Assembly (NCBI GenBank): GCA_001820095.1
Contig: MHOO01000003.1
Span: 66,987 to 110,704 of the forward strand
Source of the DNA: Candidatus Staskawiczbacteria bacterium RIFCSPHIGHO2_01_FULL_39_25
GTDB taxonomy: Bacteria > Patescibacteriota > Minisyncoccia > Minisyncoccales > Staskawiczbacteraceae
Length of the DNA: 43,718 nt
Reading direction: 5' to 3'
Part shown: one piece after another, positions 3,863-43,718 of the stretch
Layout of the letters: each line of letters begins with the position of its first letter
Numbering within the stretch: the stretch's first letter is position 1
Notes under the pieces: model-generated
What the model was told of the DNA's origin: nothing
Seen by the model: only the letters and a program-made list of their open reading frames with translations
Database searches by the model: none
Made by a program: the position numbers and the translations under genes

Positions 3863-4546
3863 ATGATTAAGTTTGATATCATCACTATTTTTCCAAAAAT
3901 ATTTGACTCATATGTAAAAGAGTCGCTGATTTCTCGCGCCCAAAAAAAGAAACTTATAAAAATAAATATACATAATCTGCGAAAATGGACCACTGATAAT
4001 CATCAAACAGTTGATGACAGGCCATTCGGCGGAGGATTGGGAATGGTAATTAAGATTGAACCGGTGTACAAAGCGGTTCAATCTTTAAAATTAAAATTCA
4101 AAAATCAAAATGCAAAAAGAACGAAAGTTATCCTTTTTACACCAAGAGGTAAGAAGTTTACGCAAAAAATCGTTACCCAGCTTGCAAAATTAGATCAAAT
4201 TATTTTTATCTGTGGCAGGTACGAGGGGGTTGATGAAAGGGTAGCAGAAAAAATCGCAGATATGGAGTTATCTATTGGCGACTATGACCTTATGGGCGGA
4301 GAATTGCCGGCCATGGTTGCCATAGAAACCATTTCACGATTGATCCCAGGCGTTTTAGGGAAAGAACAATTATTAAAGGAACGGATTACCAAAAGCGGGG
4401 GATTCATTGAATATGCGCAATATACTCGTCCGGAAGTTTTTTCGCCGGTTAAAAATAAAAAATGGAAAGTTCCGCCGGTTTTATTATCGGGAGATCACAA
4501 AAAGATAGAAGCGTGGAAAACAAAGCACAGCAAAGTTATTGAATAA
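3863..4546 (+). CDS. trmD: tRNA (guanine-N1)-methyltransferase
   Basis: VDDRPFGGGLGM, ICGRYEGVDER, SIGDYDLMGGELPAM, QYTRPE, VPPVLLSGDH. Confidence 0.98.
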   Translation: MIKFDIITIFPKIFDSYVKESLISRAQKKKLIKINIHNLRKWTTDNHQTVDDRPFGGGLGMVIKIEPVYKAVQSLKLKFKNQNAKRTKVILFTPRGKKFTQKIVTQLAKLDQIIFICGRYEGVDERVAEKIADMELSIGDYDLMGGELPAMVAIETISRLIPGVLGKEQLLKERITKSGGFIEYAQYTRPEVFSPVKNKKWKVPPVLLSGDHKKIEAWKTKHSKVIE

Positions 4547-4577: not shown

Positions 4578-4867
4578 GGGCAGTTGGCTGAGCAGCAAAG
4601 GCACTAGACTGTCAAAAGGCAGCTTCTTAAGGAAACTTAGGTTGAAAAACTTCGGGATATCGGTGAAACCCCAAATGTTCAATATCGATTATTGAATAAG
4701 GGCAATACCGAGGGAACCGAGTACTGGTGATAGTACTTGGGCTCCGTAGAGACTAGATACCGAAGCACCCGAAAGGGTGATGATATAGTCCATGCCTTAG
4801 GGAACTAAGGAAAAACATGAAATCTAGCGGGTCCTACCCTTCGCAGGTGCAAGTCCTGCACTGCCCA
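4578..4867 (+). tRNA. tRNA-Tyr(GUA), intron-split; exons 4578-4612 and 4820-4867
   Basis: Acceptor GGGCAGT/ACTGCCC; joined exons give CTAGA-CT-GTA-AA-TCTAG; long variable arm typical of Tyr; Tyr-Thr(GGU) tandem is a conserved arrangement. Confidence 0.92.
4613..4819 (+). ncRNA. Group I intron (207 nt, no ORF) between anticodon nt 35 and 36 of tRNA-Tyr
   Basis: 5' exon ends in U, intron ends in G; P1 CUGUC-AAAA-GGCAG with U.G wobble at the splice site; P7 elements CGTAGAGACTAG and GATATAGTCC. Confidence 0.9.
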
Positions 4868-4889
4868 CAGTTTTTTAAAAACTAAATAT

Positions 4890-5153
4890 GCCGATGTAGC
4901 TCAGCCAGCAGAGCATTTCCATGGTGGGTCGCAAACCCCTGCCCACTATATAGGTGACTATATAGTGAATCCCGAATTACGGTTAATAGTCAAACTATTT
5001 TGGCCAAGACCGTGGCGTTAAAATATTAAAAACGCCCGAACGACTGACAAGGGAAGCTTAAAAAAGTTTAAGATACAGTCTAGCCCTCTTATATATAAAA
5101 AAAAGAGGTGTAAGCGAAGGAAAAGGTCCGCAGTGCAAATCTGCGCATCGGCT
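4890..5153 (+). tRNA. tRNA-Thr(GGU), intron-split; exons 4890-4925 and 5117-5153
   Basis: Acceptor GCCGATG/CATCGGC; joined exons give TTTCC-AT-GGT-AA-GGAAA; T arm CGCAG/CTGCG. Confidence 0.9.
4926..5116 (+). ncRNA. Group I intron (191 nt, no ORF) between nt 36 and 37 of tRNA-Thr
   Basis: Exon ends in U, intron ends in G; P2-like CACTATATA/TATATAGTG; P7 elements CGACTGAC and GATACAGTCT. Confidence 0.87.
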
Positions 5154-8100: not shown

Positions 8101-8334
8101 ATGTATTACGTCTATAGTTTAAATTGTAAAGATGGTTATTATCTTGGCTGTACTGATAATTTGAAAGATAGGATCAATAGGCATACTAAGGGACAAGTAT
8201 TAGCAACGAAAGATCGCTTACCAATAACTTTAGAATTTTATTTTGCAATTGCAGACAAATATAAAGCTTTCGAATTCGAAAAATATTTAAAGTCTGGTTC
8301 GGGTAGAGCATTTATAAATAAACATTTTGATTAA
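8101..8334 (+). CDS. Small GIY-YIG nuclease-family protein
   Basis: YYVY...YLGCTDNLKDRINRH...EKYLKSGSGR. Confidence 0.9.
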   Translation: MYYVYSLNCKDGYYLGCTDNLKDRINRHTKGQVLATKDRLPITLEFYFAIADKYKAFEFEKYLKSGSGRAFINKHFD

Positions 8335-43311: not shown

Positions 43312-43718
43312 ATATTTGAGAGTTTGATCCTAGCTCAGGGTGAACGCTGGAAATGTGGATACCGGCATGCAAGTCAAGGGGCAACGCATCACTTTGCGAG
43401 TGATGCGACGGTTGACAATTAACATTTAACAATTGACGACGAGTTTTTTAAAAAGCTCAATAAAGTCAAATGTCACATGTCAAAGGTCAAATGTTGCGCA
43501 TCGCGCGCAGCGTGATGCGTTGCACCGGCGAACGGCTTAGTAACACGTAGATACATACCCAAAAGTGGGGCATAGCTCGTCGAAAGACGGGGTAATTTCC
43601 CATAGTCCTGCAAAGGTAAAGGCGCAAGCCGCTTTTGGAATGGTCTGCGGTCTATCAGCTAGTTGGTGAGGTAATGGCTCACCAAGGCTATGACGGATAG
43701 GGGGCGTGAGAGCGCGAC
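43312..43718 (+). rRNA. rrs: 16S rRNA, 5' part (start approximate, truncated by window)
   Basis: AGAGTTTGATCCTAGCTCAG, CATGCAAGTC, GGCGAACGG, TAGTTGGTGAGGTAATGGCTCACCAAGGC. Confidence 0.97.
43381..43523 (+). other. Enlarged V1/helix 6 of 16S containing a type A heptamer hairpin
   Basis: GCAACGCATCAC/GTGATGCGTTGC closing stem encloses ACAATTAACATTTAACAATTGAC ... GTCAAATGTCACATGTCAAAGGTCAAATG. Confidence 0.85.

Follow-up and report, generated by a model that had tools for sequence, protein, structure and literature searches.

Adjacent tRNA-Tyr and tRNA-Thr genes of a patescibacterial genome very probably split by two unrelated group I introns

This genome, from a member of Patescibacteria whose closest named relatives are Candidatus Staskawiczbacteria, has one tRNA-Tyr(GUA) gene and one tRNA-Thr(GGU) gene, which lie in tandem downstream of trmD in the window (the whole stretch of DNA analysed, 43,718 nt). 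The anticodon loops of both genes are very probably split by group I introns that contain no ORF and are unrelated to each other. The features of the locus are as follows (a hyphen within a pairing marks the splice site).

3863..4546, plus strand: trmD, tRNA m1G37 methyltransferase, upstream neighbour (Pfam PF01746, E 1.5e-50)
4578-4867, plus strand: tRNA-Tyr(GUA), whole gene, with a 207-nt intron between positions 35 and 36
4578..4612, plus strand: tRNA-Tyr(GUA) exon 1, positions 1-35, ending in CUGU (ARAGORN on the spliced sequence)
4613..4819, plus strand: Tyr group I intron, 207 nt, IC3-like, without an ORF (RF00028, model R2, MFE, empty sites, covariation)
4609..4622, plus strand: P1 of the Tyr intron, CUGU-C with the internal guide GGCAG and the U4612.G4619 wobble at the splice site (read from the sequence)
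4751..4790, plus strand: catalytic centre of the Tyr intron, P7 GACUA (4751-4755)/UAGUC (4786-4790), P3' CCGAAG, P8 hairpin, and J8/7 AUGAUA
4820..4867, plus strand: tRNA-Tyr exon 2, position 36 to the discriminator A, beginning with AAA (spliced-sequence call)
4868..4889, plus strand: 22-nt spacer from tRNA-Tyr to tRNA-Thr
4890-5153, plus strand: tRNA-Thr(GGU), whole gene, with a 191-nt intron between positions 36 and 37
4890..4925, plus strand: tRNA-Thr(GGU) exon 1, positions 1-36, ending in AUGGU (ARAGORN on the spliced sequence)
4926..5116, plus strand: Thr(GGU) group I intron, 191 nt, with a divergent core and without an ORF (RF00028, model R1, homologues, MFE)
4923..4943, plus strand: P1 of the Thr intron, GGU-GGG with CCC[U]GCC and the U4925.G4941 wobble (comparative alignment)
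5042..5080, plus strand: catalytic centre of the Thr intron, P7 GACUG (5042-5046)/CAGUC (5076-5080), P3' GGGA, P8 hairpin, and J8/7 AAGAUA
5117..5153, plus strand: tRNA-Thr exon 2, position 37 to the discriminator U, beginning with AA (spliced-sequence call)

The coordinates, intron lengths, insertion sites, and 22-nt gap given in the initial annotation of this DNA were correct to the base. It had also expected that standard tRNA finders would overlook both genes, and neither was seen by ARAGORN at default settings or by the Rfam tRNA model; the Rfam search of the whole window with default filters reported no group I intron. When the exons were spliced in silico, ARAGORN called tRNA-Tyr(gta) and tRNA-Thr(ggt). 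In the case of the Thr gene, a hand check of the possible choices of U(-1) and G(omega) found that only the 36/37 junction gives a 7-nt anticodon loop. In its intron mode, ARAGORN took tRNA-Thr for Arg(gcg), placing G at -1, and the split tRNA-Asn gene described below for Thr(tgt); both calls were discarded on the grounds of P1 pairing, acceptor-stem identity, the size of the anticodon loop (7 nt), and the U(-1)/G(omega) rule. A scan of the plus strand upstream of the pair revealed no consensus promoter.

Both introns have the previously noted U before the 5' splice site, terminal G, U.G wobble in P1 (CUGU-C/GGCAG and GGU-GGG/CC[U]GCC), and P7 pairings (GACUA/UAGUC in Tyr and GACUG/CAGUC in Thr). 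In the Tyr intron, P2 is capped by a GAAA loop, P3 is CUUCGG/CCGAAG, P4 is UCGGUG/UACCGA, and P8 is CACCC-GAAA-GGGUG (hyphens here delimit the loop); the 3' end is ...CAUG, with omega G at G4819. The Thr intron has P2 with a GUGA loop, P3 UCCC/GGGA, P4 ACGGUU/GACCGU, P5 GUC/GGC, and P6 GGCGU/ACGCC. P8 and P9 were also found, and the 3' end is ...AAGCG, with omega G at G5116. Most of the expected helices were recovered by folding each single sequence (MFE z = -5.68 for Tyr and -4.61 for Thr). A search with the Rfam group I model RF00028, which had been proposed as a check, gave a divided result. In a permissive search of a 751-nt region, the Tyr intron scored 52.2 bits (E 2.6e-12), above the gathering score of 50 bits, whereas the Thr intron scored only 23.9 bits (E 7.6e-4), below it. 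Against their own covariance models, the Tyr intron scored 136.8 bits (R2) and the Thr intron 116 bits (R1; a core model, built instead of a full-length model). Each model gave a single match at the locus, with no cross-match between the two introns, in agreement with the earlier statement that they are dissimilar.

Comparison with homologues defined the Thr type further. R1 was searched against 150 genomes chosen to sample the phylum evenly, and eight of them had one copy each, at 78-109 bits. The family now spans 15 genomes from at least eight families, in which the P3/P7 pseudoknot, J8/7 AAGAUA, and the terminal G are conserved. All 15 homologues are inserted after CCAUGGU of tRNA-Thr(GGU), at 36/37, and omega G precedes AAGG in all 14 whose 3' junction could be located. 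Covariation was scored in one alignment of seven full introns and in a core alignment of 15 members. In the full introns, 99.4% of the cells were paired and 11 pairs had changed on both sides (slid controls, 35-51% paired); P1, P2, and P9 covary, and the third intron pair of P1 occurs as GC, AU, CG, or GU. In the 15 cores, 98.6% were paired and eight pairs had changed on both sides: P3 covaries from C-G to U-A at two positions, and covariation was also seen throughout P5 and in three P6 pairs. No variation occurs in P4 or P7 among the 15 members; these two proposed helices are supported by their conservation and fit rather than by covariation. For the Tyr type, 18 Tyr and Asn intron cores were aligned, of which 94.5% of the cells were paired and 18 of 23 pairs had changed on both sides. 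The splice-adjacent +1 pair of P1 varies among C-G, G-C, and G.U across the Tyr homologues. Across the covariation tests, slid controls were 20-51% paired.

The L2 loop of the Thr type tracks the form of P8: GAAA loops occur with a CUAAG...UAUG internal loop in P8, and other GNRA loops (e.g., GUGA here) occur with a plain P8 helix, with few exceptions. An L2-P8 tertiary contact is known in IC3 introns, and we read the coupling as probably representing this contact.

The divergence of the Thr type bears on another reading, that the introns are real and that one or both, chiefly the Thr type, need a host protein (a maturase-like factor or an aminoacyl-tRNA synthetase). The low RF00028 score of the Thr intron would fit such a need, as would the lack of the usual GUAGA J6/7, the J7/3 of 4 nt, and the loss from this copy of the GAAA loop and receptor-like P8 pair common in its homologues. 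However, the core, including the P3/P7 pseudoknot, J8/7, and terminal G, has been kept with compensatory changes throughout the 15 genomes, and no gene for a possible cofactor was identified in linkage with the locus. We therefore consider a protein requirement unlikely, and prefer the reading that both introns act as ribozymes.

The whole-genome search with RF00028 revealed a third split gene, the only tRNA-Asn(GUU) gene of the genome, in which the intron follows CUGU between positions 35 and 36.

C11:155208-155482 (L002), minus strand, outside the window: third group I intron, 200 nt, in tRNA-Asn(GUU) (RF00028, 46.5 bits)

The Asn and Tyr introns of this genome are homologous (76.5% identity over the conserved core columns). 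R2 matched 40 of 151 genomes of the phylum (this genome counted). The best matches were mostly in tRNA-Asn at 35/36, and some were in tRNA-Met(CAU) and tRNA-Phe, both at 33/34. In G078, from another family of the phylum, the match lay in tRNA-Tyr at 35/36, with a split tRNA-Thr 22 nt downstream. R2 did not match the Thr intron at the locus, and it gave weak cross-matches (30.6-37.9 bits) on two Thr-type homologues. The terminal G was kept in all nine other Tyr/Asn homologues extracted. The family of the Tyr intron targets CUGU in tRNAs with GUN anticodons; that of the Thr intron is distinct and occurs only in tRNA-Thr(GGU). Because the introns belong to two different lineages, the suggestion that Tyr and Thr were invaded independently is upheld, and relatives carry one intron, the other, or neither.

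A tree of the Tyr/Asn cores contained two subtypes at 100/99 support, and the Tyr and Asn introns of this genome both fell in subtype A. The Tyr intron was 70.9-84.5% identical to other subtype-A Tyr and Asn introns over 103 conserved core columns. Monophyly of the Tyr introns, a group named after inspection of the tree, gave p-AU 0.047 on these 103 columns, and sisterhood of the Tyr and Asn introns of this genome was not rejected (p 0.11), the 103 columns being too few to resolve the tree. Subtype B includes tRNA-Asn introns of two congeners, G012 (L027) and G005 (L031), in each of which an ORF encodes an HNH-like motif (CANCH); this ORF fills the P1 loop and extends into the internal guide ACGCAG.

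Nakagawa, Amikura, Omae and Suzuki reportedly deal with tRNA group I introns of Patescibacteria in a preprint from 2025. The known host sites had been raised from 4 to 21 by Williams 2020 (10.1101/2020.01.27.920355), whose seed alignment includes Tyr.4Ug, Thr.5Ug, Asn.4Ug, and Asp.4Ug. Both intron types found here (Tyr 35/36 and Thr(GGU) 36/37) are therefore already catalogued, and the locus is a further example, not a new kind of element as the initial annotation had implied. The Tyr intron resembles Tyr.4Ug, Asn.4Ug, and Asp.4Ug in its 35/36 insertion after CUGU, U(-1), and terminal G; it differs in genome and in sequence, and here Tyr and Asn copies coexist in one genome. The representative Mba143.Tyr.4Ug and the Tyr intron have the motifs GAUAnCGGUGAA, CAAUACCG, CCGUAGAGACUAGAUACC, and GAUAUAGUCCAUGCC in common, and they are plainly members of the same family. 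The Thr intron resembles Thr.5Ug in its site, tRNA-Thr(GGU) 36/37, and in the GCC guide pairing to GGU. However, the core of Rba53, which represents Thr.5Ug, is GC-rich and of the classical IC3 kind (AAAUUCGGGGAAACC, GUAGAGACCAGA), unlike that of the Thr-type family here (ACGGUUAAUAG, CGAACGACUGACAAGGG, AAGAUACAGUC).

In comparison with the IC3-type core, GUAGAGACUAGA, CGGUGAAACC, CAAUACCGA, and AUAGUCC of the Tyr intron match rows of Williams' alignment; in the Azoarcus tRNA-Ile row, GUAGAGACUAGA is identical and AUAGUCC is also shared. The Thr intron has the same helix order, with different sequences in J6/7, J7/3, and P4-P5. Like the IC3 introns of Azoarcus tRNA-Ile(CAU) and cyanobacterial tRNA-Leu(UAA), those at the locus are small anticodon-loop ribozymes without ORFs, with the same helix plan and an L2 tetraloop with a probable P8 partner; the host tRNAs and sites are different (Leu 34/35; Ile 36/37). 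Splicing has been experimentally shown for the Azoarcus and cyanobacterial introns and is predicted for those at the locus.

The tRNA-Tyr/tRNA-Thr(GGU) tandem is conserved in 60 related genomes, and many relatives, including species of the same genus, have uninterrupted Tyr and Thr(GGU) genes with identical junction sequences. Because these same-genus species carry uninterrupted copies, the intron boundaries are fixed. Tyr exon 1 differed from uninterrupted Tyr genes of relatives by 0-5 mismatches; the exons of G008 differed from those here by 0-2 bases, with a single-base difference in Thr exon 1. The Tyr intron occurs alone in G011, and the Thr intron occurs alone, at the same site, in G006, G013, G014, G015, G016, and G036. 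We surveyed 80 named genome loci that hold trmD, of which 43 had both tRNA genes called. Both genes were intact at 37 of the 80 loci, Thr alone was split at five, and Tyr alone at one; none of the 43 loci with both genes called had both split. Splitting of both genes in the tandem is thus uncommon, and the one other genome found is G078.

No ORF of at least 50 aa lies within 4613-4819 or 4926-5116, so neither intron contains an endonuclease ORF, as had been noted, and no endonuclease gene adjoins the tRNA-Tyr/tRNA-Thr pair. Elsewhere in the window, a 77-aa GIY-YIG protein (PF01541, E 4.7e-11) is encoded at 8101-8334, directly after tRNA-Trp. In the relatives G014 and G018, similar small GIY-YIG genes separate tRNA-Tyr from tRNA-Thr, and in G036 and G026 this position is occupied by a protein that combines HTH and LAGLIDADG-like parts. 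The present genome has two homologues of the latter, ORFs of about 225 aa at C11:6893-7252 (L073) and C4:74940-75209 (L074), just upstream of uninterrupted tRNA-Phe and tRNA-Gln(UUG) genes. The window also contains the beginning of a 16S rRNA gene (43312-43718), in which helix 6 (V1) has a 122-nt insertion relative to the Rfam model.

The genome is about 0.74 Mb, in 12 contigs, and the assembly is 99.25% complete. ARAGORN found 41 uninterrupted tRNA genes in it, none of them for Tyr, Asn, or Thr(GGU), and in a BLAST search of the assembly each exon of the Tyr, Thr(GGU), and Asn genes occurred only once. The Tyr and Thr(GGU) genes are single-copy in the assembly, and the proposed search for intron-less copies found none. 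With the split genes counted, the tRNA set comprises 44 genes for all 20 amino acids. TAY, AAY, and ACY codons account for 3.21%, 4.87%, and 3.17% of 174,499 codons (11.25% in total), and all three classes are used in 422 of 427 long ORFs. Because the genes are single-copy in an assembly of this completeness, decoding of Tyr, Asn, and ACY codons should depend on the splicing of the three introns; an extra copy missing from the 12 contigs is unlikely.

The draft state of the assembly and the host dependence of Patescibacteria also leave room for the view that the split genes are decaying pseudogenes, the tRNAs being derived from unassembled genes or from the host of the cell. We regard this as extremely improbable, given the completeness of the genome, exons almost identical to functional-looking uninterrupted orthologues, ribozyme cores under clear structural constraint, and the need for outside supply of three separate isoacceptors. 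We therefore retain the reading of the split genes as working genes.

The tRNA set has two further features. Five of the 44 tRNAs (Tyr, Thr-GGU, His, Cys, and one Met-CAU at C2:10628-10699) have UGC in the T-loop (G55) together with AG in the D-loop in place of G18-G19, and the remaining tRNAs have D-loop GG with T-loop UUC. No exception to this coupling was seen in the ARAGORN-called Tyr and Thr genes of relatives, among which tRNA-Thr switches between the two forms. From this pattern, it looks as if an A18.G55 pair may replace the G18.Psi55 elbow pair, independently of the introns. In addition, tRNA-Ile(UAU) is present and there are only two CAU tRNAs, which suggests that a lysidine-modified tRNA-Ile2 has no part in decoding AUA.

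Given what is known of group I intron chemistry, we infer that both introns at the locus would self-splice. After transcription, each intron would fold into the group I core (P3-P9), and the internal guide would pair with the end of exon 1 (CUGU in Tyr and GGU in Thr) to form P1, in which the U.G wobble marks the point of cleavage. The 5' splice site would then be cut by a free guanosine, bound in P7 as the cofactor, after which the terminal G of the intron (G4819 or G5116) would replace the cofactor and the exons would be joined, restoring the loops CUGUAAA (Tyr) and AUGGUAA (Thr).

If splicing proceeds in this way, all the tRNA for Tyr, Asn, and Thr-ACY codons (11% of codons) passes through ribozymes that depend on a guanosine cofactor. 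For this reason, one might imagine splicing as an inherent brake, through which translation capacity would follow the guanosine nucleotide pool in a bacterium that has a tiny genome and is metabolically dependent; we hold this idea to be quite improbable. More modestly, the tRNA-Asn intron may have switched sites onto the shared CUGU target and so given rise to the Tyr intron.

Our finding suggests a practical difficulty in annotating such genomes: default tRNA finders miss the split Tyr, Thr, and Asn genes, and the genome would seem to have no tRNA-Tyr and no tRNA-Asn. If the introns splice as inferred, the locus would be a clear case of essential decoding that relies on ribozymes in a minimal genome. 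The presence and absence of the introns within one genus offer clean material on the gain, loss, and target choice of group I introns without ORFs.
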